A DNA stretch of 18,447 nucleotides from a virus (taxonomy: Duplodnaviria > Heunggongvirae > Uroviricota > Caudoviricetes). This document shows positions 1-18,241 of the stretch, in pieces. Below the pieces are notes generated by a model that saw only the letters and a list, made by a program, of their open reading frames with translations, made no database searches and had not been told where the DNA came from. A program made the position numbers and the translations under genes. Positions within the stretch are counted from its first letter, which is position 1, and each line of letters begins with the position of its first letter. Location of the stretch: IMG/VR virus record IMGVR_UViG_2778261463_000012, positions 1-18,447 of that record; one strand, given 5' to 3'.

Positions 1-20
1 CCATTTGATCATATGACAAG

Positions 21-587
21 ATGTGTATCCACCTTAACTTAATGATTTTTACCAAAATCATTAGGGGATTCATCAGTGCCGAGGCCGTACAGCGACTTAA
101 TGATGGTGAATATGATTATCCATGCTGGCACGGTTTAAGAATCATGCAATGTATTGCGGAAGCCGATGATGCCGGATTGCTGGGAAGATTTTCAGTCGAT
201 CTGAAGGTTGCCCAGTGGCGCTGGCTGTATGTGGCGACGTTTATCAGTGAAGAGGAAGACAAGAACGGTACCATTGATATCCCTAACGATAACGGAACTA
301 CAGATCGCGCAGTTATTTATAAGGGGAAGCATGGTTGCCTGAGTATATACCCAGGACCACTTCGCATTGCCCTGCAAAACCATGTCGAATGGGGATTTAT
401 TGAAAAATATGGCGAAGCTGAAGGCATGGGGCGAGTTCTGTTTCTCTATCAAAAAATGCTCATCGCAGATCCTGATAATGGTTTCATTGTCTCTGCTATG
501 GGACGAGAAGGGCTTGAACTCCTTCTGGATGAAATGACTCACGATCTGAATACTCATGGTATACCAGAAGCACCAGTGACACATTAA
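21..587 (+). CDS. hypothetical protein (188 aa)
   Basis: Complete ORF; in-frame TGA at 6-8 upstream so the gene lies within the window. First gene of a co-directional cluster. No motif I can assign. Confidence 0.4.
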   Translation: MCIHLNLMIFTKIIRGFISAEAVQRLNDGEYDYPCWHGLRIMQCIAEADDAGLLGRFSVDLKVAQWRWLYVATFISEEEDKNGTIDIPNDNGTTDRAVIYKGKHGCLSIYPGPLRIALQNHVEWGFIEKYGEAEGMGRVLFLYQKMLIADPDNGFIVSAMGREGLELLLDEMTHDLNTHGIPEAPVTH

Positions 588-596
588 ATATTACAT

Positions 597-875
597 ATGG
601 CAAATCAGAATAAAATTAATGTATTTCAGGTTGAATCAAAACATAAAACACCTGTGATAAAACACGTTCGCCGCCATACACGCATCTATACGCCAGAAGA
701 GTTTATAGCAATGCCAATGATAAAGAAGTTTATTCGTGATAATCCCGATCACATTGCTATAGATAAAAATAATGGAGAAATAATGTTATCACGCGAACTT
801 GCCGAAATTTACTGTAACGTGAATAACAGTAAAAAGTTGAAAAAGGCAATCAGAAAGATATCAGGAGGAGCATGA
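597..875 (+). CDS. hypothetical small basic protein (92 aa)
   Basis: ORF 10 nt after the preceding stop; its stop overlaps the next start (ATGA at 872-875), suggesting translational coupling. No recognisable motif. Confidence 0.4.
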   Translation: MANQNKINVFQVESKHKTPVIKHVRRHTRIYTPEEFIAMPMIKKFIRDNPDHIAIDKNNGEIMLSRELAEIYCNVNNSKKLKKAIRKISGGA

Positions 876-1060
876 ATATTTATTTCAGAATAGTTATATC
901 ACTGGCAATTATCGCATGCATTTACGGATTACTCGTCCCGTTTCTGATATCAATGAAGGATACGGTAGCGGTAATTTCTGGCTTTGCACTGGCGTTTCTG
1001 ACCCCGCCATGCATTTATGCCATTTATAAGGGGCTTTCTTTCACTAAGGATAAAAGATGA
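872..1060 (+). CDS. small membrane protein, two predicted TM helices (62 aa)
   Basis: AGGAGG at 863-868 precedes ATG 872. Two hydrophobic stretches (IVISLAIIACIYGLLVPFLI and VISGFALAFLTPPCIYAIY). Stop overlaps the start of the SPFH gene (ATGA at 1057-1060). Confidence 0.55.
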   Translation: MNIYFRIVISLAIIACIYGLLVPFLISMKDTVAVISGFALAFLTPPCIYAIYKGLSFTKDKR

Positions 1061-1884
1061 AAAAAATTATTTTTTCTTTAGCCATTGTTCTGCCTGCCAT
1101 TGGCCTTGTCGGTTGTGATCGTGTTGAGCCTGGTAATGTGGGCATCAAAGTCAACAAACTTGGCGACGATAAAGGCGTAGGTGAAGTGGTCGGTGTTGGT
1201 CGCTACTGGACAGGCTGGAACACTGAAGTTTATATCTTCCCGACCTTTAAGCAGATGAAGACCTACGATGATCCATTCAGTTTCCAGATGAGCGATGGAA
1301 CAACCATTGGTTACCACATCGGAGTAGCCTACAAGGTTGATCCATCCAAAGTTACCACGGTGTTTCAAACCTACCGCAAAGGTGTGGATGACATTACCGA
1401 CACCGACCTGCGCCAGAAGATAGCAGATGCACTAAATCGGCTGGCCAGCAAAATGACCACTGATAAATTTATCGACGGTGGTAAATCTGAACTACTGGAT
1501 TCAGCTCTAAAAGATATTCAGGCAGAAATGACGCCCATCGGTATTCAGGTAATGAGCCTGTCTTATGTAGGTAAGCCGGAATACCCGTCAACTGTTATTG
1601 ACAGCATTAACGCTAAAGTCACGGCAAATCAGAAAACTCTTCAACGTGAGCAGGAAGTAAAACAGCGCGAAGCGGAAGCCAACATGTTGCGCGCGGAAGC
1701 TGCCGGACAGGCTGATGCGATTCGCACAAAAGCCCAGGCCGAAGCCGATGCTATTCGTTTACGCGGCGAAGCTCTGCGCCAGAACCCCGGTGTTATGGAG
1801 CTGGAAGCCATCAATAAATGGAACGGCACACTGCCGCAATACATGACCAACGGTGCCAGTACACCATTTATCCAGGTTAAATAA
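1057..1884 (+). CDS. SPFH/band-7 (prohibitin/HflC-like) family lipoprotein
   Basis: N-terminal signal peptide with lipobox (LVGC); central SPFH-like region; Ala/Glu/Arg/Gln-rich coiled-coil C-terminal segment (REQEVKQREAEANMLRAEAAGQADAIRTKAQAEADAIRLRGEAL) typical of band-7 proteins. AAGGA at 1046-1050. Confidence 0.8.
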   Translation: MKKIIFSLAIVLPAIGLVGCDRVEPGNVGIKVNKLGDDKGVGEVVGVGRYWTGWNTEVYIFPTFKQMKTYDDPFSFQMSDGTTIGYHIGVAYKVDPSKVTTVFQTYRKGVDDITDTDLRQKIADALNRLASKMTTDKFIDGGKSELLDSALKDIQAEMTPIGIQVMSLSYVGKPEYPSTVIDSINAKVTANQKTLQREQEVKQREAEANMLRAEAAGQADAIRTKAQAEADAIRLRGEALRQNPGVMELEAINKWNGTLPQYMTNGASTPFIQVK

Positions 1885-1923
1885 CTTATATGCCCGGCAA
1901 GCCGCCGGGCTAAGGGAAAGCAG

Positions 1924-2283
1924 ATGAACACTCATAATACTCAACCGAAAATAATGAACTATGACCCGAATCTGACGTCGTGCGGACGCATGGCAAAACA
2001 AACCGTTCGATTAACTTTCGGACTATGGGAATACCGCGAAACATTCGAAGTCACTGTCGGTGGCAACCTGACCGGACTCGATGTTATCAGTTGCGCTATT
2101 GAAAGCCTGTACGCAACGCTGCCTTATGAAGAAGTCGAGGATGAGCGCGATATCATAGCCACCATTAATATCGGCGGACTGGAATGCAAGGATGAAGACC
2201 TGCAGGGAGAACTCTGGCTTGCCGAGATGCTTGTATCCGCAGAAATAATCAGCATTGAGCCTGACACAGGCATACAACTCTGA
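1924..2283 (+). CDS. hypothetical acidic protein (119 aa)
   Basis: ORF co-directional with the cluster; no recognisable motif. Confidence 0.4.
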   Translation: MNTHNTQPKIMNYDPNLTSCGRMAKQTVRLTFGLWEYRETFEVTVGGNLTGLDVISCAIESLYATLPYEEVEDERDIIATINIGGLECKDEDLQGELWLAEMLVSAEIISIEPDTGIQL

Positions 2284-2313
2284 AATTCCATAAATTCAGG
2301 GAGCAATAGAAAA

Positions 2314-2556
2314 ATGTTCGCTTTGATTAATCAGGGGCAGCTATACACCGACAGTTCCGGTTACCCAATAAAAATTATTCGCTGCATAAACAGCACTGTG
2401 TTGTACAGAAGAATGGATGGGTTAACACAGTCGGTAAAAATAAACGATTTTAATGAACTGTTTGAACGGATCGATCACCAGGAATACCGACAAATTCTGG
2501 CAGAAACAGAGCAGGAAGCTCATCTGAAAAAATTACGAGCCATGAAAAGGAAGTAA
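2314..2556 (+). CDS. hypothetical protein (80 aa)
   Basis: ORF co-directional with the cluster; no recognisable motif. Confidence 0.35.
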   Translation: MFALINQGQLYTDSSGYPIKIIRCINSTVLYRRMDGLTQSVKINDFNELFERIDHQEYRQILAETEQEAHLKKLRAMKRK

Positions 2557-2712
2557 AGAATGAATAAAGCATTTGAACGATGAGTGCGCCAGCGTTATGG
2601 CAATCGCTATGACCTGACGAGAGATCTCGAAGGCTACTACTGCCGTGAAGTAGTGAAACGAATGTTTGAGGTGTGGTGTCACTGCCGCGGATAAAAGTTT
2701 TGTGAGGTAACT

Positions 2713-2928
2713 ATGTCTCTCAACATTGACTGTGTACCTATTACGACATGGTGTCGTGATATGGGAGAAACTCTGGATGCCGTTAACAAACGGTTACAAC
2801 GTGGAGTATGGGAGGAAGGGGTTCAGGTTTTAAATGTGGAAGGCTCCAAAGAACGATGGATTGATTTAACTGAGGTTTCAAAATGGGCGAGAAAAAACAA
2901 ATATCCTTATCACTCCCAAGAGGAATAA
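2713..2928 (+). CDS. putative excisionase-like small DNA-binding protein (71 aa)
   Basis: Small ORF immediately upstream of, and overlapping by 46 nt, a tyrosine integrase gene (classic xis-int arrangement). GAGGT precedes ATG 2713. Assignment is by context and size only. Confidence 0.4.
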   Translation: MSLNIDCVPITTWCRDMGETLDAVNKRLQRGVWEEGVQVLNVEGSKERWIDLTEVSKWARKNKYPYHSQEE

Positions 2929-4055
2929 CAATTCGTCAATACAAGAATTGCTCTACATTAGTTGTGACCTTCACCTATAAAGGGGTTCTTTGCAGGGAAC
3001 CCTTATCAAGGCTGGAAGTTAACGCAAAGGGGATTAAGTATGCTGAACGACTGCTCGGAGAAATAAAAAACAAAATTAGTGATGGCTCATTCGATTTTTC
3101 AGAGTACTTTCCAAACTCCAAGAAGCTTATATTATTTGGAATGGTAAAGAGGAATAAAAGTGTGAAAGATTACCTAGATGAATATTTAGAAATTTGCAAA
3201 AACAGAAAGTTATCCCCTTCAACAATAAATGGATATGAAAAATGTGTATCTGCATTATCGGAACTACATAACTTACATGTTATTGACCTGACTCCAGCAA
3301 TTTTAAAGAAATGGATTTCAAGAAGAACAACAAAACTGAAGACCATCAGAAACAATTTATCATTTTTAAGAAGCGCAGTAGATGAGGCTGTCACTGACGG
3401 ACTTATAACAATAAACCCTGTAAAACTAGTTAGTGCAAGTAGATACCATGCTGTTAACCATACAACCAATTCTGCCGAATATGAAGTAGACCCCTTTACG
3501 CCAGCAGAAGCAGCCGCTATCTACAACGCCTGTATCTATGAGGAATGGCGAAACCTTTTTTGTTTCGCATTCAATACAGGCCTTCGAAGCTCAGAATTAT
3601 GTGCATTACGTTGGTCTGATATTGATTTTATTGGTCATACCGTTCATGTACAGGTTGCTTCTGTCGTTGGTGTGATAAAAGGAACAAAAACAAAAGCTGG
3701 TACAAGAAAAGTTGAATTAAACAGTGAAGCCCTAATGGCATTACAGTCACAGAAATCATTTACGATGATGAGAAGTGCTTTTGTATTCAGTGACCCAAAG
3801 ACACGCAAACCGTGGGCTAATTCAGCAGCGATTCGTAAGAAAGCCTGGATCCCGACTCTTAAAAAAGCTGGTGTTCGTTACCGTAATCCATATCAGACCA
3901 GACATACATTCGCTACACGACATATCAGCCAGGGGGCAAATTTATTCTGGCTTGCAGGCCAAATGGGGCACAAAGGACCCGAAATGCTTTTTAGACACTA
4001 TGGTTCATATTTATCAGAATATGATGGTAATACAGCAATCTCAGAAGTAATCTAG
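2883..4055 (+). CDS. tyrosine recombinase / integrase (390 aa), AT-rich
   Basis: C-terminal catalytic region with the conserved box II pattern (RHTFATRHISQGANLFWLAGQMGHKGPEMLFRHYGSY; HxxR and terminal Tyr). Transcribed toward the ssrA-like att core at 4189-4214. Confidence 0.85.
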   Translation: MGEKKQISLSLPRGITIRQYKNCSTLVVTFTYKGVLCREPLSRLEVNAKGIKYAERLLGEIKNKISDGSFDFSEYFPNSKKLILFGMVKRNKSVKDYLDEYLEICKNRKLSPSTINGYEKCVSALSELHNLHVIDLTPAILKKWISRRTTKLKTIRNNLSFLRSAVDEAVTDGLITINPVKLVSASRYHAVNHTTNSAEYEVDPFTPAEAAAIYNACIYEEWRNLFCFAFNTGLRSSELCALRWSDIDFIGHTVHVQVASVVGVIKGTKTKAGTRKVELNSEALMALQSQKSFTMMRSAFVFSDPKTRKPWANSAAIRKKAWIPTLKKAGVRYRNPYQTRHTFATRHISQGANLFWLAGQMGHKGPEMLFRHYGSYLSEYDGNTAISEVI

Positions 4056-4188
4056 TCGCTTAAATATTTCAAAATATGTACAAAGGTAGGACACAGAATA
4101 GACCTTAACTTACACCTGAAATACATAAAAATATACAGTGAAATATGAAATCATTTGTATTTCATATTGTTATGTAATTTGGGTGTTT

Positions 4189-4214
4189 GGGTTCAACTCC
4201 CGCCAGCTCCACCA
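4189..4214 (+). other. att core: 26-nt copy of the tmRNA (ssrA) 3' end (GGGTTCAACTCCCGCCAGCTCCACCA); not a full tmRNA gene
   Basis: Exact match to the 3'-terminal 26 nt of E. coli tmRNA as I recall it, ending in CCA. The sequence upstream (4060-4188) is AT-rich and unrelated to tmRNA, so this is an attachment-site duplicate. Confidence 0.7.
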
Positions 4215-4250
4215 CTTGCTCTTCCGGATACGTCCGGAGAAATCCTGAAA

Positions 4251-4283
4251 GCCCGCATGGCACAAGCTCTGCGGGCTTTTTTG
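4251..4283 (+). terminator. rho-independent terminator (ssrA-type) downstream of att core
   Basis: Stem GCCCGCA (4251-4257) / TGCGGGC (4271-4277) followed by TTTTTT (4278-4283). Confidence 0.6.
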
Positions 4284-4326
4284 TGTCTACTGTTGTCCGA
4301 GGATATCCAGCTAAATCCAGTGATTA

Positions 4327-4378
4327 TTGGTATACGTTTAGGTATACGGTAGGATGTATACCTAAACGCGTATACCAA
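4327..4378. promoter_or_regulatory. imperfect inverted repeat of GGTATACG-containing arms immediately upstream of int; candidate Int-binding/operator site
   Basis: Left arm TTGGTATACGTTTAGGTATACG (4327-4348) and right arm GTATACCTAAACGCGTATACCAA (4356-4378) are near-perfect reverse complements. A single copy of the arm recurs at 12578-12599 near the other end of the element. Confidence 0.4.
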
Positions 4379-4398
4379 TTCATGAAGGAGCGGCCAAA

Positions 4399-5598
4399 TT
4401 GGCAAGAACGACACGCCCCCTGACCAACACAGAAGTACTGCGCGCTAAAGCGTTAGAAAAGGATCTAACGTTGCATGATGGCGATGGTCTTTTTCTACTC
4501 GTTAAAACGAACGGTAAGAAGTTATGGCGTTTCCGTTATCAACGTCCGGCAACAAAGCAGCGGACAATGATGGGGCTAGGTACCTTCCCAGCTCTTTCAC
4601 TTGCTGACGCCCGACGGTTAAGAGCGGATTACCTTTCCTTGTTAGCCAACGGAATTGACCCGCAAATTCAAGCTGAAATTGCAGAGGAACAGCAGCAAAT
4701 CGCACAGGACAGTATTTTTACAACGGTCGCCGCTAACTGGTTCCAGCTTAAAAGCAAAAGCGTAACCCCTGATTACGCAAGAGACATTTGGCGCTCATTG
4801 GAGAAAGATGTATTCCCTGCCGTTGGTGAACTCCCAGTTCAGCAAATCAAAGCCCGAACGTTGGTTGAAGCGCTTGAGCCAGTCAAAGCTCGTGGGGCGC
4901 TAGAGACTGTACGTCGGCTAGTGCAACGCATTAACGAGATAATGATCTTTGCCGTAAATACAGGGCTGATCGATGCCAATCCAGCTTCCGGGGTTGGAAT
5001 GGCCTTTGAGAAGCCAAAAAAGCAAAACATGCCAACACTACGACCAGAAGAACTACCAAATCTAATGCGTTCTTTAGCCATGTCTAATTTATCTGTATCG
5101 ACTCGCTGCCTTATCGAATGGCAGCTTCTAACACTTGTACGCCCTTCTGAAGCCTCTGGTACTCAATGGGCAGAGATCGATCTTGAGAATAAACTCTGGA
5201 CGATCCCTGCAGGACGAATGAAAGCCAAGCGAGAACATATTGTTCCTCTGTCGGTTCGAGCATTAGATATTTTAGAGATAATGAAGCCTATTAGTGCACA
5301 TCGTGAATATGTTTTCCCAAGTAGAAATAATCCTAAGCAACCAATGAATAGTCAGACAGCTAATGCTGCATTAAAAAGAATTGGTTATGGAGGAAAGCTT
5401 GTTGCACATGGTTTGCGTTCTATAGCCAGTACAGCTATGAATGAGGAAGGTTTTAATCCCGATGTTATTGAAGCAGCATTAGCGCATAGCGATAAAAATG
5501 AAGTCCGTAAAGCATATAATCGTTCGACTTACCTTTATCAACGAATTGATTTAATGAATTGGTGGGCTAACTTCGTGTTTAAAAAAACACACGAATAG
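4399..5598 (+). CDS. int: P4-type tyrosine integrase (399 aa, TTG start)
   Basis: AAGGAG at 4385-4390 then TTG 4399. N-terminus MARTTRPLTNTEVLRAKA...DGDGLFLLV and C-terminal HGLRSIASTAMNEEGF...ALAHSDKNEVRKAYNRSTY match the P4/CP4-57 integrase architecture. Sits directly downstream of the ssrA 3'-end att core. Confidence 0.9.
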   Translation: MARTTRPLTNTEVLRAKALEKDLTLHDGDGLFLLVKTNGKKLWRFRYQRPATKQRTMMGLGTFPALSLADARRLRADYLSLLANGIDPQIQAEIAEEQQQIAQDSIFTTVAANWFQLKSKSVTPDYARDIWRSLEKDVFPAVGELPVQQIKARTLVEALEPVKARGALETVRRLVQRINEIMIFAVNTGLIDANPASGVGMAFEKPKKQNMPTLRPEELPNLMRSLAMSNLSVSTRCLIEWQLLTLVRPSEASGTQWAEIDLENKLWTIPAGRMKAKREHIVPLSVRALDILEIMKPISAHREYVFPSRNNPKQPMNSQTANAALKRIGYGGKLVAHGLRSIASTAMNEEGFNPDVIEAALAHSDKNEVRKAYNRSTYLYQRIDLMNWWANFVFKKTHE

Positions 5599-5611
5599 CC
5601 CACATAAAATA

Positions 5612-5634
5612 AGAGGCTGCTCAATGCAGCCATT
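5612..5634. terminator. probable bidirectional terminator between convergent int and cargo operon
   Basis: Hairpin GGCTGC (5615-5620) / GCAGCC (5626-5631), flanked by A-rich sequence upstream and T-rich downstream on the + strand. Confidence 0.4.
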
Positions 5635-6379
5635 ATTTCAATGAATTAATATACGTATTTAATCCTGTTGATTTTATAACTCCCATCACTTCTGGTGATT
5701 TTTTCAAATAAACAACATTAGGCCATGACAGATAAGCAATAATAATACATATTAGTCGAACCATTGCAAAATCAGACAGATTAATGAGAGTTTCAATATA
5801 CATATGTTTATCTTGCTCATCGAAACCATTTTCAGTTATAACTTCATTATCAACAAGTTTAACTGCAAGATAAAACCTTCTTGCAAATGAAAACATCTTA
5901 TCATCAGATTTATCATCTAATGATTCAATTATTTTAATCAAAGCATCTTCAGCAATACCTCTTTGAATACTGGTTTTAATCAGTTGCTCAAGTTTATTTA
6001 CAGCATTAACCTTTTTAACTTCAAAATCACCACTTGGAGATGGAAAAATCAAAGAGAAATCATCAAAAGCACTTTTTTGCGCGTTAATTAAATTATAAAA
6101 TTGAAATTCAAATGACTTCCTTTTATCAAGAAACTCCTGTCTTTTAGTCTCATTAATTAAACATTCATTCGCAGTTAATTGCATTTTAACTGATTTAATT
6201 AGAAGTAATATTGAAATGAAACTCAATATAGGATTAAGAACACCTCCAAAATAATCACCAAACTGTCCCCATATCTCTTTGTTTTCAGAAAGAGTGGTTG
6301 AGCTTCCACCAAATTGATAATAGTATAATCCAAAGACTACTAATATCAAAATAGATGTAACCCAACCTATATACCTCAT
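5633..6379 (-). CDS. membrane-anchored protein of unknown function (248 aa); downstream gene of the two-gene cargo operon
   Basis: Two N-terminal hydrophobic helices (IGWVTSILILVVFGLYYY and VLNPILSFISILLLIKSV) flank a Gly/aromatic-rich motif (WGQFGDYFGG); charged, probably helical C-terminal domain. Start overlaps the stop of the upstream gene (ATGA). GAGGTGG RBS. AT-rich. Confidence 0.65.
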   Translation of the reverse strand: MRYIGWVTSILILVVFGLYYYQFGGSSTTLSENKEIWGQFGDYFGGVLNPILSFISILLLIKSVKMQLTANECLINETKRQEFLDKRKSFEFQFYNLINAQKSAFDDFSLIFPSPSGDFEVKKVNAVNKLEQLIKTSIQRGIAEDALIKIIESLDDKSDDKMFSFARRFYLAVKLVDNEVITENGFDEQDKHMYIETLINLSDFAMVRLICIIIAYLSWPNVVYLKKSPEVMGVIKSTGLNTYINSLK

Positions 6380-7197
6380 ACCCCATCCACCTCAATAATT
6401 AAGTATTTCACTACCTCACCATTACTGATGGTTAAATCTCTAACTTTTAATAACAAATACTCTCGCTCTTCTTCTGCCAGTCTATTGTTAGCATCTAGAT
6501 TACTCGTTATTTTCTTGGTCTGGGCATCAGTAACGTATTTTAGACCATTCAAAAAACCAAAAGAAGTCGTTTTTTCTTCCCCCCTGACTAACAGTCTACC
6601 ATTTCCAGTAAAAGTATTAAACCTAGTAACTATAGCTTCTATCTGATGATCATGATTAGTTTCAATTAGCTCAGTTATATTCAAAGCGGTATTTTTGTTT
6701 AAAGTAATTATCTTTTGCTTCTCACCCGGCTTTCTATAATTCAAATCAACTGAATAGTTGCACATGGTGGAAATTTTATGCATATTTTTAAGTCTATTTC
6801 GAATAGCTTTAGTCAACTCATCTTCAATATCGTCTAATCCGGAAACCACTTTTTTTGCAGCGTCACTCAATGCCGGACCTTCTAAAAAAAGAGACTCATA
6901 AATATAATAACTCATAACTTCTGCAAATACAGTGCGAGTCATACTTGAAAGACGCGCTGCAACTTTTCTATCTGATATAACAACATCAAATCGCTGACCA
7001 AAAGAGCCTGTAAAAGAATGCTTAAGGTTTGTTCTTATTTCATTAGATTGATGTCTGTTTTCTTTAACTTTACCTCGAAGTATTGCCTCTGTAATAATAC
7101 TGGTAACTCCAGATGCACCCAATAGTGTCTGGAGAGCATAATCCATATCTATTTCATCGTCGCCGCTATTGATAACCAAATCAAGACTAACTTTCAT
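6376..7197 (-). CDS. protein of unknown function (about 273 aa); upstream gene of the two-gene cargo operon
   Basis: ORF track gives 6376-7245, but GGGGAAA precedes the ATG at 7197 (MKVSLDLV...), which I prefer as the start. Soluble; no Walker or other catalytic motif I can assign. AT-rich, unlike the P4 backbone. Confidence 0.6.
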   Translation of the reverse strand: MKVSLDLVINSGDDEIDMDYALQTLLGASGVTSIITEAILRGKVKENRHQSNEIRTNLKHSFTGSFGQRFDVVISDRKVAARLSSMTRTVFAEVMSYYIYESLFLEGPALSDAAKKVVSGLDDIEDELTKAIRNRLKNMHKISTMCNYSVDLNYRKPGEKQKIITLNKNTALNITELIETNHDHQIEAIVTRFNTFTGNGRLLVRGEEKTTSFGFLNGLKYVTDAQTKKITSNLDANNRLAEEEREYLLLKVRDLTISNGEVVKYLIIEVDGV

Positions 7198-7333
7198 TAT
7201 TTCCCCACGAATTGATAAAAATCTGCTCAATGAATAAAAGTCCATATTTTTATACAGTAATCAAACTTCCAATGTCTAAAATATGCAAACACATTAAACT
7301 AAATTTATGATAGTGATCAACATATTGCGCGCA

Positions 7334-7352
7334 GTGCTTTCCCCGCCTCGCC
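7334..7352 (-). other. P2/P4-type cos site (19-nt cohesive-end sequence)
   Basis: + strand reads GTGCTTTCCCCGCCTCGCC, the reverse complement of the P2/P4 cohesive end GGCGAGGCGGGGAAAGCAC as I recall it. Located just beyond the 3' end of psu, as in P4. Confidence 0.65.
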
Positions 7353-7455
7353 CGCCCGCTTTGTGGGGCGGTTTTAATGCAGTTGTACTGACACGCTCAG
7401 ACTGCGCCGGGAATGGCGCGGTCTGCAGAAAATGAGGCAGGGAAACGCATGCAAA

Positions 7456-7486
7456 GCCATGCACCTTATCGATGCATGGCTTTTTT
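7456..7486 (+). terminator. rho-independent terminator-like hairpin between cos and psu
   Basis: Stem GCCATGCA (7456-7463) / TGCATGGC (7473-7480), loop of 9 nt, then TTTTTT (7481-7486). The reverse strand has only a short T-run. Confidence 0.45.
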
Positions 7487-7516
7487 CAGTAAAAACGGGC
7501 GGATTTTCGGGGAATT

Positions 7517-8089
7517 TTACACAGACTGACGTGATGCCAGTTGCGCACTTTTACGCGAAAAAATCATGTTCTGCGCAGGGGTGAATTTTTCACGGCTGTC
7601 ATCCACCGAAGCCGCGTCAGGCCTGAATCCGATGGTCGTTAAAATGTCGCTATCCTGTGCGGAATAATTAATTTTTTCCCCCTTCGCAAGCCAGGACAGA
7701 AGGGCTTCACGCAGGGCATCTGTGGCACGCTGTATGGCACAGTTTCGGGCAATGGCCGTCAGCTCACTGTAGCCCATCAGCTCCGGTGCCAGTGCGGCCG
7801 CCAGTGCTGTGCCGTGCTGCTGCATAAAATCATTCAGCCGGTCGCGGATGCTGATGTGCTGAACGGCTTCATGCGAACGAATATAACGACCGGCAGCCTG
7901 ATTCACCTGCCATTTTCTGACTTCGATAATATTGCGTAATTCGTCCAGGCGACTGACGTTTCTGCCTTCCCCGGACAGAAGCCGCAGATATTCCTGTTCG
8001 GCCGCAGCCAGCTCATTTTTGCGTTGCAGCCATGCTGCTTTGTTATTCTGACAGGTGTCAAAGGCCTGCTGTAAGGCTGTGCTTTCCAT
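7517..8089 (-). CDS. psu: Psu, polarity suppression / capsid decoration protein (190 aa)
   Basis: 190-aa protein (MESTALQQAFDTCQNNKAAWLQRKNELAAAEQEY...) of P4 Psu length and sequence character, in the conserved position after delta in the sid-delta-psu block and adjacent to cos. Confidence 0.85.
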   Translation of the reverse strand: MESTALQQAFDTCQNNKAAWLQRKNELAAAEQEYLRLLSGEGRNVSRLDELRNIIEVRKWQVNQAAGRYIRSHEAVQHISIRDRLNDFMQQHGTALAAALAPELMGYSELTAIARNCAIQRATDALREALLSWLAKGEKINYSAQDSDILTTIGFRPDAASVDDSREKFTPAQNMIFSRKSAQLASRQSV

Positions 8090-8162
8090 CGTTATCTCTT
8101 TCTCATCATGCTGAAGAATAAAAATACGGTGTGCGGCGACGGCCGGTGTTAACCGGCAGCCC

Positions 8163-8663
8163 TCATTCCAGACGCAGCGAATATGATTGTGTTTTTAAGC
8201 GTACTGGCGGCAGTTCCTGTTTTTCATGCAGGCTTTCTGCCAGTTCGTCCGGCGTGACCGGGCGGACAATAAAACGGTTGATGGTCTGAAGCGTTTTAAA
8301 CACCAGACCACATCCCGGATCCGTGCACACATAAAAACGCTCGGTGACTTCCTGAGACAGACGCCGCGATGTTCTTGACAGTGCAAGGCCTTTACATCTC
8401 CGACAACAATATCCGGTAACAAGCATTCTTTTCGGGCGTTTCATACTGCCGGAGGCTGACGTCAGTGAATCGCGGTATCTCTGTTTGCCTGAAATGTATT
8501 CCATTCCTGAATCTTTACTGTCAGAGAAAAAGCTTTCACTCGCTTCAAATGTCGCAGAGCAATAAATATTCCGGCACTGTGCAATCATTATCTTGGTGCC
8601 ATCGTCCATGAAATGTGCGCGGCGGGTGTGAGCAACATGTCCACACGACGGGCAGTAAATCAT
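8163..8663 (-). CDS. delta: Delta, Ogr/Delta-family zinc-finger late transcriptional activator (166 aa from MIYCPSCGH)
   Basis: Ogr-like zinc-finger motifs (CPSCGH...QCRNIYCSATF, and a second CCRRC...CTDPGCG half), consistent with the duplicated-Ogr architecture of P4 Delta. The ORF track starts at 8720; I prefer the internal ATG at 8661-8663, giving 166 aa. Confidence 0.8.
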   Translation of the reverse strand: MIYCPSCGHVAHTRRAHFMDDGTKIMIAQCRNIYCSATFEASESFFSDSKDSGMEYISGKQRYRDSLTSASGSMKRPKRMLVTGYCCRRCKGLALSRTSRRLSQEVTERFYVCTDPGCGLVFKTLQTINRFIVRPVTPDELAESLHEKQELPPVRLKTQSYSLRLE

Positions 8664-8956
8664 GACAGCAGTCCTCTGGCCTTCAGCTCTGCTCCCTGCT
8701 GGTCTATTTTGTCCTGCCACACCTTGCGCTGTGCCGGTGTGCCTGCCACCTCATAATCCATGTGCGGGAGTGTTGCCGCTGACAGTCCGGCCAGCCGGAG
8801 AACCGGCTCGCCGCTGAGGCTGATTTGTATCTGTTTAATTTTCTGTTCCAGCGATGATTTCACCTGCTGCATGACAGCCTTTTCCGGTGCGACGTAGCCC
8901 TGATGGCCGGTGGTGTTGGCGAGCGGATTTTCCTGTACCAGAATGCTCAGATGCAT
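8660..8956 (-). pseudogene. sid: sid-like ORF, probably 5'-truncated (98 aa from its only ATG; frame open without a start up to a stop at 9116-9118)
   Basis: Occupies the position of sid directly upstream of and overlapping delta. My translation of the upstream frame finds no ATG/GTG/TTG before the stop at 9116-9118, so at most about 152 codons remain, against 244 aa for P4 Sid. Identity rests on position, not motif. Confidence 0.4.
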
Positions 8957-9489
8957 TGCCCGGACAAGCGCCTCACAGGTTTCATTCAGGGCGTGTTCCA
9001 GCTCATGCTCTGCATACAGACTCAGCAGGTGATGATGTGCCTTCCGGTATCCTTGTGCGTATCCTCGCTGACGGGCGCACCACAGACATCCCGCTGGGGC
9101 GTTTTCTGCGGGAATTTACCTGTGACCGTCCTGACCTGTTCAAACGCAGCCCCGTAAACCGGCATGCGGTACTGAAAGAAATGGCCGGAGACCCGGAATT
9201 ACAGAAATGGCGGGAGAAATATCTGGATATTTACCCGCAGGAGCCTGTTCCGGTCAGCCGGGAAGCACCGGTGGCGCGGGAATGGCGGGAAATTCCCCGC
9301 ACGGAGCCTGACCCGGAAATCACACCGGATAACAGTTACCGCAATTATCTGTAATTAAAAAACGACACCCGAAAAATTAAATGTGCGTATTCGCGCAGGG
9401 ATACGCACGTCTTCAGGAGACGCAGATATGCCTTATCAGTTAATGCAACCGGCACGGAATTCAGTCATCTGTCACAGGGAGGAAAGCAA

Positions 9490-9810
9490 ATGAAAACACC
9501 CTTACCGCCCGTCTTACGCGCTGCCCTTTACCGTCGCGCTGTCGCCTGTGCCTGGCTGACCGTGTGCGAACGTCAGCACCGCTACCCGCATCTCACCCTT
9601 GAGTCACTGGAGGCGGCCATCGCCGCTGAGCTGGAAGGCTTTTATCTGCGCCAGCACGGTGAGGAAAAAGGGCGTCAGATAGCCTGTGCCCTGCTGGAAG
9701 ATTTAATGGAATCCGGCCCCCTGAAGGCCGCGCCGTCGCTGTCCTTTCTCGGGCTGGTTGTGATGGATGAACTCTGTGCCCGTCACATAAAAGCGCCGGT
9801 ACTGCACTGA
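9490..9810 (+). CDS. small conserved protein upstream of alpha (106 aa)
   Basis: GGAGG at 9479-9483 precedes ATG 9490. GC-rich codon usage like the P4 backbone; ends 15 nt before the alpha start. In P4 a small ORF occupies the equivalent position; exact identity not verified. Confidence 0.55.
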
Positions 9811-9824
9811 AGGAGAACAACACC

Positions 9825-12158
9825 ATGAAAATGAACGTAACCGCCACCGTCAGCCATGCGCTCGGCCACTGGCCGCGTATTCTCCCGGCGCTGGGGATTC
9901 AGGTGCTGAAGAACCGTCATCAGCCCTGTCCGGTCTGTGGCGGGAGTGACCGCTTCCGTTTTGATGACAGGGAGGGGCGCGGCACCTGGTACTGCAATCA
10001 GTGTGGTGCCGGTGACGGCCTGAAACTGGTTGAAAAGGTGTTTGGTGTCTCCCCGTCCGACGCGGCCGCAAAAGTGGCTGCCGTGACCGGCAGCCTGCCC
10101 CCGGCTGACCCGGCAGTGACGGCTGCCGCCGGTGCTGAAACAGACGCTGCCCGGAAGAACGCAGCCGCACTGGCACAAACCCTGATGGCGAAAACCTGTC
10201 CCGGAACCGGTAACGCCTACCTGACCCGCAAGGGCTTTCCCGGCCGGGAATGCCGGATGCTGACCGGCACACACAGAGCCGGTGGCGTGAGCTGGCGCGC
10301 CGGTGACCTTGTGGTGCCACTGTATGACGACAGCGGCGAACTGGTTAACCTTCAGTTAATCAGTGCTGACGGCCGTAAGCGCACTCTGAAAGGCGGACAG
10401 GTCAGGGGCACCTGTCACACCTTTGAAGGACAGAATCAGGCCGGAAAACGTCTGTGGATAGCGGAGGGATACGCGACCGCACTTACCGTGCATCACCTGA
10501 CCGGTGAAACGGTGATGGTGGCGCTTTCTTCCGTGAACCTCCTTTCTCTGGCCAGCCTTGCCCGGCAGAAGTATCCGGCCTGTCAGATTGTCCTTGCCGC
10601 AGACCGTGACCTCAGCGGTGACGGCCAGACAAAAGCCGCCGCAGCCGCAGATGCGTGTGAGGGCGTTGTTGCCCTGCCGCCGGTCTTCGGTGACTGGAAT
10701 GATGCCTTCACGCAGTACGGCGGGGAGGCCACCCGTAAGGCCATTTACGATGCCATCCGGCCACCGGCTGAAAGCCCGTTCGACACCATGAGCGAAGCGG
10801 AGTTTTCCGCCATGAGTACCAGCGAAAAGGCCATGCGTATCTATGAGCATTACGGCGAGGCGCTCGCGGTCGATGCCAACGGCCAGCTTCTGTCCCGCTA
10901 TGAAAATGGTGTCTGGAAGGTGCTGCCGCCACAGGACTTTGCCCGGGATGTGGCCGGGCTGTTTCAGCGTCTGCGCGCGCCGTTCTCCTCCGGGAAGGTG
11001 GCCTCCGTGGTGGACACCCTGAAGCTGATTATTCCGCAGCAGGAAGCCCCCTCCCGCCGCCTGATTGGCTTTCGTAACGGCGTGCTCGACACGCAGAACG
11101 GCACGTTCCACCCGCACAGTCCGTCACACTGGATGCGCACCCTGTGCGATGTGGATTTCACCCCGCCGGTGGACGGTGAAACGCTGGAGACCCACGCCCC
11201 CGCGTTCTGGCGCTGGCTTGACCGTGCCGCCGGTGGCCGTGCGGAAAAACGCGACGTGATTCTGGCCGCACTGTTTATGGTGCTGGCGAACCGCTACGAC
11301 TGGCAGCTCTTTCTGGAGGTGACCGGTCCCGGCGGCAGCGGCAAAAGTATCATGGCCGAAATAGCCACCCTGCTGGCCGGGGAGGATAACGCCACGTCGG
11401 CCACCATCGAGACGCTGGAATCCCCGCGTGAACGTGCCGCGTTAACTGGCTTCTCACTGATACGCCTGCCGGACCAGGAAAAATGGAGCGGCGACGGTGC
11501 CGGACTCAAGGCCATCACCGGCGGCGATGCGGTGTCCGTGGACCCGAAATACCGGGATGCGTACTCCACGCATATCCCGGCGGTGATTCTGGCCGTGAAC
11601 AATAACCCGATGCGCTTCACCGACCGCAGCGGCGGCGTGTCACGCCGGCGGGTGATTATTCACTTCCCGGAACAGATAGCCCCGCAGGAGCGCGACCCGC
11701 AGCTTAAGGACAAAATCACCCGCGAGCTGGCGGTCATCGTGCGTCACCTGATGCAGAAGTTCAGCGACCCGATGCTCGCCCGGTCACTGCTTCAGTCCCA
11801 GCAGAACTCAGACGAGGCACTGAACATCAAACGGGATGCCGACCCGACGTTTGATTTTATCGGCTATCTGGAAACCCTGCCGCAGACCAGCGGCATGTAT
11901 ATGGGGAACGCCAGTATCATCCCGCGCAATTACCGTAAATACCTCTATCACGCCTATCTGGCCTACATGGAGGCAAACGGCTACCGGAATGTACTCAGCC
12001 TGAAAATGTTCGGGCTGGGGCTGCCGGTGATGCTGAAGGAATACGGACTGAATTACGAGAAGCGCCATACCAAACAGGGGATACAGACCAACCTGACGCT
12101 GAAAGAGGAAAGCTACGGCGACTGGCTGCCAAAATGTGACGACCCTGCAACAACCTGA
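9825..12158 (+). CDS. alpha: P4 alpha-type primase-helicase (777 aa)
   Basis: N-terminal zinc-binding motif (CPVCGGSDRFRF...WYCNQCGAGDG), a TOPRIM-like primase region (LWIAEGYATALT...VLAADRDLSGDGQ) and a Walker A box (TGPGGSGKS) of a C-terminal helicase domain. Length equals that of P4 alpha; followed by terminator and crr repeats. Confidence 0.9.
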   Translation: MKMNVTATVSHALGHWPRILPALGIQVLKNRHQPCPVCGGSDRFRFDDREGRGTWYCNQCGAGDGLKLVEKVFGVSPSDAAAKVAAVTGSLPPADPAVTAAAGAETDAARKNAAALAQTLMAKTCPGTGNAYLTRKGFPGRECRMLTGTHRAGGVSWRAGDLVVPLYDDSGELVNLQLISADGRKRTLKGGQVRGTCHTFEGQNQAGKRLWIAEGYATALTVHHLTGETVMVALSSVNLLSLASLARQKYPACQIVLAADRDLSGDGQTKAAAAADACEGVVALPPVFGDWNDAFTQYGGEATRKAIYDAIRPPAESPFDTMSEAEFSAMSTSEKAMRIYEHYGEALAVDANGQLLSRYENGVWKVLPPQDFARDVAGLFQRLRAPFSSGKVASVVDTLKLIIPQQEAPSRRLIGFRNGVLDTQNGTFHPHSPSHWMRTLCDVDFTPPVDGETLETHAPAFWRWLDRAAGGRAEKRDVILAALFMVLANRYDWQLFLEVTGPGGSGKSIMAEIATLLAGEDNATSATIETLESPRERAALTGFSLIRLPDQEKWSGDGAGLKAITGGDAVSVDPKYRDAYSTHIPAVILAVNNNPMRFTDRSGGVSRRRVIIHFPEQIAPQERDPQLKDKITRELAVIVRHLMQKFSDPMLARSLLQSQQNSDEALNIKRDADPTFDFIGYLETLPQTSGMYMGNASIIPRNYRKYLYHAYLAYMEANGYRNVLSLKMFGLGLPVMLKEYGLNYEKRHTKQGIQTNLTLKEESYGDWLPKCDDPATT

Positions 12159-12174
12159 CCATCATGACTCATCT

Positions 12175-12199
12175 GACCGGCATCTGCCGGTCTTTTTTT
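12175..12199 (+). terminator. rho-independent terminator of alpha
   Basis: Stem GACCGG (12175-12180) / CCGGTC (12187-12192) followed by TTTTTTT (12193-12199). Confidence 0.6.
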
Positions 12200-12216
12200 A
12201 TCCCTGAATTCCCCGA

Positions 12217-12515
12217 AGGTGAACAATCCACTGTTCACCCTTCACCGTATATTCACCCGTTATCACACTGAAATTAAAAGAGAAAAACGAAAGGTGAACA
12301 GTGTGAACAATCAAATCAAAAAAAACTTTTTTTCTCCCTGTGTGATTTCAGTACGGGGGATTAATCACCGGTATGAGTCACACCGGCAGAATGCCGGAGG
12401 TGAAGAATCGAATGTTCACCCTTCACCCATTATTCACCACCTATCACTCTGAAATAAAAGGAGAAAATCAAAGAGTGAACAGTGTGAACAGTTCTTTCGA
12501 AAAAAAATTTTTTTC
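12217..12515. repeat. crr-like region: two direct repeats of about 120 bp about 60 bp apart, carrying TGTTCACC/GGTGAACA iterons
   Basis: Unit 1 about 12217-12335 and unit 2 about 12398-12515 align almost base for base (e.g. ATGTTCACCCTTCACC... and ...GTGAACAGTGTGAACA... followed by A-run/T-run). This matches the P4 crr organisation and the alpha-binding octamer TGTTCACC. Confidence 0.7.
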
Positions 12516-12577
12516 CTGTACGATATAGCATCAATCCAAGTAAAAATGCGCTTTCATTTCACATTAACTTACAGCCA

Positions 12578-12599
12578 TTGGTATACGATTAGGTATACG
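12578..12599. promoter_or_regulatory. single copy of the GGTATACG-containing arm repeat (candidate Int arm-type site) near the right end of the P4-like element
   Basis: TTGGTATACGATTAGGTATACG differs by one base from the left arm at 4327-4348. Confidence 0.35.
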
Positions 12600-12652
12600 C
12601 ACAAAAACTGAATTAAACAAAATCGTTAAAAATCAAAGCGATACAATATTTA

Positions 12653-12674
12653 TTCAAACTCCGCCAGCCCACCA
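12653..12674 (+). other. degenerate second copy of the tmRNA 3'-end att core (TTCAAACTCCGCCAGCCCACCA)
   Basis: Related to 4192-4214 with a few substitutions/indels, ending in CCA, followed by the same type of terminator and by a second P4-type integrase gene. Confidence 0.55.
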
Positions 12675-12710
12675 ATTTTTGATATATTGAAGTTCAGTGA
12701 AGTCTATCAA

Positions 12711-12742
12711 GCCCGCATGGAACCAGCCTTGCGGGCTTTTTT
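12711..12742 (+). terminator. rho-independent terminator (ssrA-type) after second att core
   Basis: Stem GCCCGCA (12711-12717) / TGCGGGC (12730-12736) followed by TTTTTT (12737-12742); near-identical to the stem at 4251-4277. Confidence 0.55.
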
Positions 12743-12840
12743 ACGTCTATAGTAGTCTACCGAGAATTGCTAGAATCTACTCGTTATGGCACCCTTTTTG
12801 GGACCCAACACAAAGGGTCCAAAACATGAGGGTCCCAAAC

Positions 12841-14070
12841 ATGGCAAAAATCGCTAAGAAGCTCACTGACACTGAAATCAAAAGCACCAAACCTGCCGAG
12901 AAAGAGGTTAACCTTTTTGACGGCGATGGTTTGCTCCTGCGAATCGCCCCCTTAGCGAAGGGAGGAAAGAAAAATTGGTATTTCAGATATGCAGTGCCTG
13001 TGACCAAAAAGCGAACTAAGGTGAGCTTAGGAACCTATCCTCACCTTACACTTGCGAAGGCACGAGCTTTACGTGATGAGTACTTGTCGTTGCTTGCAAA
13101 TGGTATAGACCCACAAGTTCATAACACCCACAAAGCCAATGCCCTTAAGGATGCAACGGAACATACATTTCAAGCAGTAGCCAAGAAGTGGCTTGATGAG
13201 AAAGTCAAAACGTCAGGCATCTCCCAGGATCATGCTAACGACATCTGGCGAAGCCTAGAGAGAAATATCTTTCCAACGTTGGGTGATACCCCCATTAAGG
13301 AGATTCGCCCTAAAATGCTTAAACAGCATTTAGACCCCATAGAAAAACGAGGTGTCCTTGAAACACTTCGCCGCGTCATATCCCGCCTGAATGAAATTTT
13401 CCGCTATGCAGCAACAGAAGAACTCATAGAATTCAATCCGGCTGACAACCTGGGGCAACGGTTCAGCAAGCCAAAAAAACAGAATATGCCAGCATTACCC
13501 CCTTCCGAACTCCCCCGCTTCCTGGTTGCTCTAAACAATGCTTCTATCCGTTTAGAAACAAGGCTACTGATTGAGTGGCAACTTCTCACATGGGTTCGCC
13601 CTGGTGAAGCTGTTCGCACAAGATGGTCAGATATTGATATAGAAACCAGCATGTGGAACATCCCGGCGGAGTTTATGAAAATGAAGAAGCCTCACAAAGT
13701 TCCACTGAGCAAAGAATCTTTGCGAGTCTTGGATTCAATGAAAGCCATCAGCGGGCATAGAGAGTGGGTTTTTCCCAGTATCAAAGCTCCACTCAATCAC
13801 ATGCATGAACAAACAGCTAATGCGGCTATAATCCGTATGGGCTTCGGAGGTGAGCTTGTAGCTCATGGTATGCGATCAATCGCTAGAACGGCGGCTGAGG
13901 AGTGTGGCAAGTTTAGAACTGATGTCTTAGAAGCCGCCCTTGCCCACTCGAAAAAAGATGAAATAATTGCAGCCTACAATCGTGCAGAGTATCTCACAGA
14001 ACGTGTGGTTCTCATGCAATGGTGGAGTGACTATGTTTCGTCTCAAAAATACAAAGTTATTGCCGCATAA
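12841..14070 (+). CDS. int: P4-type tyrosine integrase, second copy (409 aa from MAKIAKKL)
   Basis: The ORF is open from 12697, but the N-terminus MAKIAKKLTDTEIKSTKPAEKEVNLFDGDGLLLRI aligns with the start of the integrase at 4399, and GAGGG precedes ATG 12841. C-terminal catalytic region HGMRSIARTAAEE...ALAHSKKDEIIAAYNRAEY. Paralog of the 4399-5598 integrase, clearly diverged. Confidence 0.85.
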   Translation: MAKIAKKLTDTEIKSTKPAEKEVNLFDGDGLLLRIAPLAKGGKKNWYFRYAVPVTKKRTKVSLGTYPHLTLAKARALRDEYLSLLANGIDPQVHNTHKANALKDATEHTFQAVAKKWLDEKVKTSGISQDHANDIWRSLERNIFPTLGDTPIKEIRPKMLKQHLDPIEKRGVLETLRRVISRLNEIFRYAATEELIEFNPADNLGQRFSKPKKQNMPALPPSELPRFLVALNNASIRLETRLLIEWQLLTWVRPGEAVRTRWSDIDIETSMWNIPAEFMKMKKPHKVPLSKESLRVLDSMKAISGHREWVFPSIKAPLNHMHEQTANAAIIRMGFGGELVAHGMRSIARTAAEECGKFRTDVLEAALAHSKKDEIIAAYNRAEYLTERVVLMQWWSDYVSSQKYKVIAA

Positions 14071-14352
14071 CTCTTCCATGATGGGTTAACTATCTTGATT
14101 TATTTGAAGAATTAATGATCACACCATTAACCTATGTGGACTAAGCATAGCCATTTACAAATGGGTACCTTGAGGCCACATAACGAAAGCTGTCGGTCAT
14201 ATCAGCTAAATAATTCACATCTCTTCTCGATTATCATACACCTCGAAGAACTACCAAATTCGCTCTAATCAATGATAAAACAGTTGAATTCGGTTAAAAT
14301 TTGATCAATTTTATCCTCTACATTGTATTGAATCATCCATGAGGTTTTGTGC

Positions 14353-15909
14353 ATGGCTAGCGGAAATGAAAAAAATCATAGAGTTAGGGTCGCACAGTAC
14401 TTGAGGATGTCTACCGACCATCAGCAATATTCTTTACATAATCAGTCTGAATATATCAAAGATTATGCTGAAAAGAACAATATGGAAATCGCTTATACCT
14501 ACGATGATGCAGGTAAGAGCGGAGTCAGTATCGTAGGCAGGCATTCTTTGCAGCAGTTACTTAGCGATGTAGAACAAAAGAAAATAGATATACAGGCTGT
14601 ATTATTTTATGATGTGAGCCGTTTTGGTCGTTTTCAAAATAGTGATGAAGCTGCATATTATTCCTTTCTATTTGAAAGAAATGGTGTAGATCTTATATAT
14701 TGTTCCGAACCTATACCCACTAAAGATTTCCCTTTAGAGTCCTCTGTTATACTGAATATAAAAAGATCAAGTGCTGCATATCACAGCAGGAATCTATCTG
14801 AAAAGGTATTTATAGGGCAAGTAAATTTAATAAAGCTTGGTTATCATCAAGGCGGTATGGCTGGTTATGGGCTGAGACGTCTTTTAGTAGACGAAAATGG
14901 CATAGCTAAAGAAATATTGAATTTCCGCAAAAGAAAGAGTATTCAAACAGATAGGGTAATATTAATTCCGGGACCAAAAAATGAAATAAAAATTGTAAAT
15001 AGAATCTATGATCTCTTTATAGATAGTAACGTCCCAGAATTCATTATTGCTGAGAGATTAAATGAACAGAGCATACCTGCAGAAAATGGAACATCATGGA
15101 CTCGTGCAAAAATACATCAAATTTTGACAAATGAAAAATATATTGGAAACAACATATATAACAAAACCTCATCTAAACTAAAAAGTAAGCTTGTAAAAAA
15201 CCCCAAACATGAATGGATTAGATGTGACAAGGCATATAAACCAATTATTTCAAAGAAAAAATATAATAAAGCTCAAGAAATAATTCAGCTCCGATCCATT
15301 CATTTGACTAATGAAGATCTATTAGAAAAGCTAAAAGAAAAATTAGAATCTAATGGAAAACTATCAGGCTTTATCATTGATGAAGATGATACAGGCCCTT
15401 CATCTTCTGTTTATAGAACCCGATTTGGTGGTCTTTTAAGAGCATATACTTTGATTGGTTATAAGCCAGAACATGATTACAGCTATCTCCAAATAAATGA
15501 AGCACTAAGATCATTTTACTCAGAGATAATTGAGGATTTTAAGGGCGAAATATTAAAAAGTAACTGTCATATAGACGAGTATAAATATTACCCAATGCTT
15601 TACATCAATGATGAGTTTTTAATTTCCGTCCTTGTTACTAAATGCATACATATGAAATCAGGTAAACTTAGATGGAAAGTCCGGTTTGATAACTCACAGA
15701 AAGCAGACATAACAATTGTTATACGAATGAATTCACAAAATATTTCACCTCTTGATTTTTATATCATACCAAAGATTGAAAACGAATATAGTAAAATGTG
15801 TATGATGGAAACAAACAACATTCGGTTAGATCTCTATAGATTTGATAATCTTGATAAATTTCTACAAATTATTACTCGCATGAAAGTGAGGGAACTATAT
15901 GCTGCCTGA
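14353..15909 (+). CDS. large serine recombinase (about 518 aa)
   Basis: N-terminal resolvase-type catalytic domain (VAQYLRMSTDHQ with the presumptive catalytic Ser; YDDAGKSG; DVSRFGR) and a recombinase domain (GYGLRR...SWTRAKIHQILTNEKYIGN), then a long C-terminal extension. GAGG at 14341-14344 precedes ATG 14353 (ORF track starts at TTG 14347). Very AT-rich. Confidence 0.8.
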   Translation: MASGNEKNHRVRVAQYLRMSTDHQQYSLHNQSEYIKDYAEKNNMEIAYTYDDAGKSGVSIVGRHSLQQLLSDVEQKKIDIQAVLFYDVSRFGRFQNSDEAAYYSFLFERNGVDLIYCSEPIPTKDFPLESSVILNIKRSSAAYHSRNLSEKVFIGQVNLIKLGYHQGGMAGYGLRRLLVDENGIAKEILNFRKRKSIQTDRVILIPGPKNEIKIVNRIYDLFIDSNVPEFIIAERLNEQSIPAENGTSWTRAKIHQILTNEKYIGNNIYNKTSSKLKSKLVKNPKHEWIRCDKAYKPIISKKKYNKAQEIIQLRSIHLTNEDLLEKLKEKLESNGKLSGFIIDEDDTGPSSSVYRTRFGGLLRAYTLIGYKPEHDYSYLQINEALRSFYSEIIEDFKGEILKSNCHIDEYKYYPMLYINDEFLISVLVTKCIHMKSGKLRWKVRFDNSQKADITIVIRMNSQNISPLDFYIIPKIENEYSKMCMMETNNIRLDLYRFDNLDKFLQIITRMKVRELYAA

Positions 15910-17688: not shown

Positions 17689-18241
17689 TCATGGTTTTAT
17701 ATAGCCTAAATAAACCAAGAAGTATACTTACACAACGACCTTCACGCCGAAGAAGCTGTCAGATACGCCAGCAACCAAAGCATTGCGTTTAAGAGTCAGT
17801 CATTGATACGAAGGGATAACTGCGTATCAGCAGCCGGACATTGAGTCGAATAAAGGCTGGTAGAGAGGGACAGTTCTGTGTCACCGGGAGATTAGTCAGA
17901 AACATCAGCGGCAGAACAGATGAACCAGCAATTGGTAGTGTACAGAAAACTCTCCAGTATATAATTATTCAACTTAACACTAAAAAAATCACATAGTTAA
18001 TATCATAATTTTTCTTTGGTCTACTTATGCGAGAGATATTGTGGCTTCAACCTGGTATTAGGAGTCGTTTCAGATAAAAGATGTTCTTCGATTCGACTGG
18101 ACTTGGTAATAGCAATAAGTAATCGTGAATATTGAAGGACGAAAGGCTACTTCAAAACAAAGTAACCTTTCCAATATTCCCATATATGGGACAAGTGGCA
18201 CATTAACTGCACATAGTGCAGGATACATATGACATAAAACT

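Follow-up and report, generated by a model that had tools for sequence, protein, structure and literature searches.

An intact P2/P4-type cos site in a P4-like satellite prophage that has very probably lost self-mobility

When a phage packaging site persists inside an integrated satellite, does it still serve to move the genes that lie beside it? This question is raised by a 19-nt sequence at positions 7334-7352 of the stretch of viral DNA analyzed here (18,447 nt, hereafter the window). A sequence-only reading had named this sequence as the P2/P4 cohesive end, and had proposed that, if the site works, the cargo operon next to it would be packaged and spread with the satellite. The minus strand of 7334-7352 reads GGCGAGGCGGGGAAAGCAC, which is the P2/P4 cohesive end with zero mismatches. 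The same 19-mer forms bases 1-19 of P4 (NC_001609), is annotated as both cosL and cosR in the P2 record (NC_001895), and is given as the cohesive end of P2-related phages in the literature (PMC3931495), so that both the sequence named and its coordinates were correct. When both strands of the window were scanned with up to three mismatches, this was the only match. Chance occurrence was rejected, as 200 dinucleotide-preserving shuffles gave an expectation of 0.01 matches against the single exact one. We identify 7334-7352 as the cohesive end within the cos of a P4-type satellite prophage.

The 19-mer occurs exactly in 38 loci when one genome per species is searched (596 Gb in total). Thirty-three of these are P2-like, with the portal gene Q nearby, or P4-like, with psu nearby, and both the Q-linked and the psu-linked classes are represented; the other five are unrelated chance matches. 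Because the bare 19-mer arises by chance or convergence in these five unrelated genomes, the flanks are needed to diagnose a cos site. The five loci lack conserved flanks and come from Phycisphaerales, Fretibacterium, Sphingomonas, Chloroflexales, and Verrucomicrobiia, which are mostly high in GC. As a separate observation, bins labelled Bacillota, Clostridiales, and Lachnospiraceae (L012, L028, and L037; also L018 and L035) carry P2/P4-type sequence. The P2 portal Q in L012 and the P4 psu in L028 share 98-99% protein identity with their E. coli counterparts, and the cos flank in L037 is of the P4 type; the matches in these three bins are probably enterobacterial contamination of the assemblies. 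A Vagococcus assembly shows the same kind of matches, more divergent at 64-84%.

For the comparison of flanks, the ends of P4 and of P2 were joined as circles and aligned to the window without gaps, anchored on the 19-mer. A 55-bp core is described as conserved and essential for packaging (PMC9594776; PMC5694545; PMC3931495, citing Ziermann and Calendar, 1990), and papers citing the same study report that homology between P2 and P4 is confined to it. In the window this core occupies 7326-7380 on the minus strand, with 28 nt on the psu side, the 19-mer, and 8 nt on the cargo side. It agrees with P4 at 53 of 55 positions and with P2 at 51, and P4 and P2 agree with each other at 51/55. The likeness of P2 to both the window and P4 is limited to positions -28 to +26, counted from the first base of the cohesive end. 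The psu-side flank tracks P4 through all 220 nt compared, with 5 mismatches, and is 97% identical to it. The P4-specific right arm, from the core to the psu stop codon (7381-7516, minus strand), is collinear with the right end of P4. Across the whole 164 nt that separate cos from the psu stop (7353-7516), 159 positions are those of P4, the differences falling at 7364, 7386, 7403, 7423, and 7442. A position 3′ of psu in a P4-like element also fits the placement of cos sites of the P2/P4/186 type, which in P2-like phages lie between A and Q.

A wider sample gives the same picture. In an alignment of 35 loci (the 33 P2-like or P4-like loci, P2, and P4), the conserved block extends from -35 to +25, corresponding to 7327-7387 of the window. 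Wherever at least 90% of the loci agree, the window has the consensus base, except at -34, where P2 deviates as well. The single core change that sets the window apart from both P2 and P4 is a G to A at 7364 (position -12). It sits in a 3-nt stretch that varies between P2 and P4, where the consensus among the 35 loci is at most 57%, and it recurs in an intact sibling (L006). The exact minimal cos, for which we rely on secondary citations and comparative conservation, possibly extends beyond 55 bp on one side. With the core and the cos-to-psu stretch preserved to this degree, the flank that terminase would have to recognize, on which the proposal of a working packaging site depended, is in place; by sequence the cos site is intact, and we infer that it looks cleavable.

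The core includes an inverted repeat rich in GC (CCGCCC...GGGCGG; 7352-7371), which is followed by TTTT and ends at the nick position. A scan marks it as terminator-like on the plus strand. As a DNA fold it is no better than shuffled sequence (z = -1.1), and its variable positions, -16 and -1, show no compensating changes in their partners among the 35 loci; on these two results a folded structure was rejected. Since there is neither a folding signal nor covariation, the repeat is taken as a protein-recognition sequence.

The cos of the window thus shares with that of P4 (NC_001609, junction of bases 11624/1) the 19-mer, the core, the arm between cos and psu, and the placement downstream of psu. 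The two differ on the left: beyond +27, P4 has its own spacer followed by gop-beta-cII, whereas the window has an unrelated AT-rich spacer and another two-gene cargo. The cos of P2 (NC_001895) has the identical 19-mer and the 51/55 core, but everything outside the core is unrelated, with old/tin on one side and the portal gene Q on the other. The element that carries the site in the window also lacks 2.18 kb of essential P4 sequence.

From its genes and attachment sites, this carrier is identified as a P4-type satellite prophage that has inserted at the ssrA 3′ end and measures about 8.46 kb from att to att. The attL site (4192-4214, plus strand) matches the final 23 nt of ssrA exactly, and attR, TTCAAACTCCGCCAGCCCACCA (12654-12676, plus strand), was read from the sequence as a degenerate copy of the same 3′ end. 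A tyrosine integrase of 399 aa (4399-5598, plus strand; Pfam Arm-DNA-bind_3, Phage_int_M, and Phage_integrase) shows no relationship to P4 int in its DNA sequence; in siblings, too, the satellite integrase adjoins ssrA. From 7325 to 12513 the window is about 98% identical to P4, except that P4 7745-9927 is absent. Three genes in this part are intact and encode proteins 95-99% identical to those of P4: psu (7517-8089, minus strand; 190 aa, Pfam Psu at E 1e-88, one amino acid change), delta (8163-8663, minus strand; 166 aa, Pfam Ogr_Delta, three changes), and the alpha primase-helicase (9825-12158, plus strand; 777 aa, ten changes). The same part contains orf106, and the element retains crr (12213-12515, plus strand), two repeats of about 120 bp with TGTTCACC iterons that the P4 annotation describes as a replication region required in cis. 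Gene order and Pfam assignments therefore bear out the earlier placement of cos between psu and the cargo operon of a P4-type satellite.

The satellite is one of three integrative elements arranged in tandem at ssrA (1-4214, 4192-12676, and 12654-18447). The first is the integrase end of a prophage (1-4188), with Band_7/SPFH, DUF5406, and DUF4222 proteins and a 390-aa integrase (2883-4055). The third is an island resembling CP4-57, which starts at about 12677 and encodes a related integrase (about 12841-14070); its int-proximal arm is homologous to that of the satellite, as seen in a 66-nt repeat (4232-4297 and 12692-12757) with 74% identity. At 14347-17688 this downstream island encodes a large serine recombinase of 520 aa (Resolvase and Recombinase domains), followed by two ParB_N/RepB-like proteins of 298 aa each. 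Cryptic P4-like prophages of the CP4-57 type, which reportedly reside at ssrA, resemble the satellite of the window in being elements with a P4-type integrase in ssrA whose satellite functions have been lost. In contrast to them, the window's element is only one deletion away from an intact satellite, and its cos, psu, delta, alpha, and crr are still about 98% identical to those of P4.

The cargo consists of two genes on the minus strand that overlap by 4 nt. Gene A (6376-7245) is an ORF of 289 aa, for which the RefSeq siblings start at 7197 and have 273 aa; gene B (5633-6379) encodes 248 aa with a hydrophobic N-terminus. Between the cos core and the start of the cargo lies a variable left arm (7198-7325, minus strand), an AT-rich spacer with no similarity to P4 or P2 past +27, and a scan of 7100-7560 found no sigma-70 consensus promoter for the cargo. 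Gene A has no Pfam match and no relative in the PDB by sequence search. The AlphaFold model of its protein is confident (pLDDT 87.5), and comparison of this model with the PDB by Foldseek gave no fold match (best TM 0.22). Its distant homologues yield weak matches to DUF7946/DUF7947 only, and homologues occur in Aeromonas, Cronobacter, Yersinia, Dickeya, Pseudoalteromonas, and Denitrovibrio. The one hint of anti-phage activity is a weak candidate match of gene A to PADLOC PDC-S25 (E 1e-5); gene B has no significant family match in Pfam or PADLOC. In siblings the two proteins are WP_000868779 (A) and WP_001269066 (B). Table S1 of Rousset et al. (2022; PMC9122126) lists this pair in the P4 hotspot as “hypothetical + hypothetical,” and no record of an experimental test of the pair was found.

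The slot that these genes occupy is a familiar one. The variable hotspot of P4 abuts cos and lies between cos and int, and its closeness to cos has been speculated to favor the exchange of cargo (Rousset et al., 2022; PMC9122126); the cos-adjacent hotspot was reported again in later papers (Moura de Sousa et al.; PMC8628076, PMC13586616). In the window, too, a variable cassette with conserved flanks separates the cos core from int. In siblings of the ssrA type that carry other cargo, homology to the window ends at 5566 and restarts at 7322/7327. Complete E. coli genomes in which the same integrase and psu-cos backbone sit at ssrA carry quite different cargo, for instance a hypothetical protein of 567 aa (ATCC 8739) or a NACHT protein (EPSSH018). 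Because homology restarts where it does, the swappable module is placed as ending 7-12 bp short of the cohesive end, where the conserved core has its margin; the hotspot of P4-like satellites starts about 8 bp past the cohesive end and continues to the 3′ end of int. The architecture does not differ from that of published elements with the P4-like defense hotspot, in which cargo lies between cos/psu and int and varies among siblings; what differs is that the carrier copy in the window is deleted. The literature thus already covers the cos site, the 55-bp core, and the placement next to a variable cargo slot of P4-like satellites, and the cargo itself is catalogued.

The same boundary is visible in short-read data. 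Of ten public Logan contigs that carry the cargo gene, nine stop 110-111 nt upstream of the gene, at about 7355-7356, a point barely within the cos core. Such contigs end at cos evidently because the unique cargo there meets the repeated P4 backbone. One of these contigs (L047) has the same neighboring 390-aa integrase as the window.

The deletion that distinguishes this copy has its junction at 9047-9049, within a GTA microhomology of 3 bp, where 2,183 bp of P4 (7745-9927) are missing. According to the P4 annotation, the lost interval contains the start of orf151, epsilon, cI, and ORF88 (the vis/alpA excisionase-regulator), and the P4 rep_origin (9086-9809) lies wholly inside it. It also contains the first 345 nt of sid (115 codons) together with the upstream late promoter region (Psid/PLL). 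The remnant of sid in the window (8660-9049, minus strand) begins in frame at codon 116, comprises codons 116-244 (129 codons), and has neither start codon nor promoter; delta and psu are without their promoter as well. Of the Rfam families, C4 (the cI-type immunity RNA) and isrK were both detected in P4 and in the intact sibling L006, and neither was detected in the window. The alpha-binding iteron of crr occurs in the window only within crr.

Six complete E. coli genomes have the same block of int, cargo, cos, and psu with the 2.18 kb present, and one of these siblings, in strain E3 (NZ_CM130010), has only 2 mismatches over 4,861 nt (99.96% identity). The deletion junction was found as a single aligned piece in none of 5,426 complete E. 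coli genomes. As near-identical siblings are intact and the junction is seen in none of these genomes, the deletion is judged to be recent and private to the window sequence. The same absence would also be expected if the deletion were an artefact of assembly or sequencing and the real element were intact, and repeated P4-like backbones do break assemblies, as the Logan contigs with this cargo that stop at cos illustrate. However, the junction is clean, with a 3-bp microhomology and collinear flanks 98-99.96% identical on both sides, which is the pattern typical of a true deletion by illegitimate recombination, and a collapse of repeats would leave unique sequence in place. We consider an artefact highly improbable, although an assembly error is in principle an objection to any reading built on the deletion. 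Taken as real, it is an ordinary kind of prophage decay, and is the sole addition that this locus makes to published knowledge.

Rearrangements in this region were also seen elsewhere. In E. coli GmM062 (H83, NZ_CM183653.1, 53366-54405), both sides of the junction match in two pieces that span 1,040 bp, which suggests a different, smaller sid-to-orf151 rearrangement in another P4-like element. In the sibling of E. coli F163, which has the same cargo, an ISEc12 insertion (IS21 family) lies between epsilon and orf151 (16528-18830 of its locus, L005), and is another independent disruption of this satellite lineage.

What remains of the satellite can be set against the seven core components by which SatelliteFinder defines a P4-like satellite (PMC10085698). 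Integrase, Psu, Delta, and alpha are present with full-length Pfam matches; Sid, a regulator of the AlpA/Vis type, and Ash/epsilon are lacking. No AlpA-like Pfam match was found among the small ORFs tested in the window, and both AlpA/Vis and epsilon are present in four siblings (L005, L006, L055, and L056). Among the cis elements for replication and immunity, crr is present, and ori and the cI immunity RNA are absent.

P4 needs Int and the help of Vis/AlpA to excise, and alpha together with ori and crr in cis to replicate. Derepression of a resident P2 is due to epsilon, and activation of the late genes to delta; the P2 terminase cleaves cos when the DNA is a circular monomer, and Sid imposes the small capsid size. 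An intact member of the lineage would accordingly be expected to excise through Int and Vis/AlpA and to replicate as a circle from ori and crr with alpha. The terminase of a helper P2 would then nick the two strands 19 nt apart at cos, and the full cos-to-cos unit, cargo included, would be packaged in a P2 capsid downsized by Sid. By this route the cargo would be packaged by virtue of its position inside the cos-to-cos unit of the excised circle, and adjacency to cos, which the sequence-only reading had offered as the reason, does not account for it. The wider claim that the cargo is packaged and spread with the satellite divides in two. It stands for the lineage, where it describes a known hotspot and was already published, and it is not supported for this copy, which carries the 2.18-kb deletion. 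Here the requirement for excision would be lost in part, replication lost, derepression of the helper and late activation lost in part, and Sid lost.

It could nevertheless be supposed that the element is a working satellite, whose cos lets a helper package the cargo and spread it from this locus. The intact cos core and right arm agree with this, as do the intact int, psu, delta, alpha, and crr, and near-identical elements in several E. coli lineages indicate that the lineage spreads. But ori, vis, the cI RNA, epsilon, Psid/PLL, and the 5′ part of sid are gone, four of seven defining components are left, and the deletion is private to the window sequence, so that we regard this possibility as very unlikely. 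Since ori, vis/alpA, the cI RNA, epsilon, Psid/PLL, and 5′ sid are deleted, we infer instead that this copy most likely cannot, on its own, replicate, excise efficiently, derepress a helper, or make small capsids. The satellite that carries the cargo is very probably no longer self-mobilisable.

Loss of self-mobility would leave room for rescue by other elements. An intact P4-like satellite, co-resident or incoming, and a P2 helper could provide Vis, epsilon, Sid, and terminase in trans, the element's own Int would excise it, and the resulting non-replicating circle would be packaged at low frequency through its own intact cos. With P2 and P4 acting in trans, plasmids of 5-10 kb bearing P4 cos but lacking P4 replication functions are packaged (PMC2231350), which favors this scenario. 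The presence of Int and both att sites agrees with it as well, and so does the finding that E. coli genomes with P4-like sequence have up to six places that match the satellite region. Against it, the substrate would not be amplified in the absence of ori, Vis from a satellite with another integrase may fail on att sites of the ssrA type, attR is degenerate, and the window shows neither a second satellite nor a helper. As cos plasmids of 5-10 kb are packaged, neither the size of 8.46 kb nor the cos site should stand in the way; the limits would be excision and copy number. We consider such rescue unlikely for this copy, and residual transfer of the element is conceivable only with help in trans.

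A further route would dispense with excision altogether. The terminase of a helper P2 could cut the chromosomal cos of an unexcisable remnant and package outward from it, in a transduction of the lateral type that would carry the cargo, int, and the neighboring ssrA-linked elements. An intact cos in an element that is probably poor at excision, situated inside a tandem array of three integrative elements, is in keeping with such a process. If true, this use of cos in situ would be a route resembling lateral transduction that is not known to be described for P2/P4, with a fixed packaging start on the chromosome, and it would move the adjacent candidate defense cargo along with ssrA-linked islands. 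However, P2 terminase reportedly uses covalently closed circular monomers, and it needs a cos at both ends of the unit. The scan with up to three mismatches found no second cos in the window. We regard in situ packaging as extremely improbable.

It is therefore highly probable, in our judgment, that the cos described here, though intact in sequence, is a relic in a disabled satellite, and that the two cargo genes have in effect become chromosomal. The site would probably stay idle unless other elements complement what has been lost. Some observations sit less easily with an idle relic: Int, alpha, crr, delta, and psu are intact, which is compatible with purifying selection or residual activity, and an excised circle of 8.46 kb could still be packaged at some frequency.

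The finding leaves the understanding of P2/P4 biology unchanged, and its use lies in the annotation and interpretation of related elements. The cos core can serve as an anchor for annotation, as it locates, with a precision of a few bases, where the swappable cargo slot of P4-like satellites ends. An intact cos alone is no proof that an element is mobile. Through a single private deletion, the cargo of a satellite has probably become a fixed locus of its host, which captures domestication at an early stage. Provided that the cargo is a defense system, the strain would have retained the defense without retaining the parasite.
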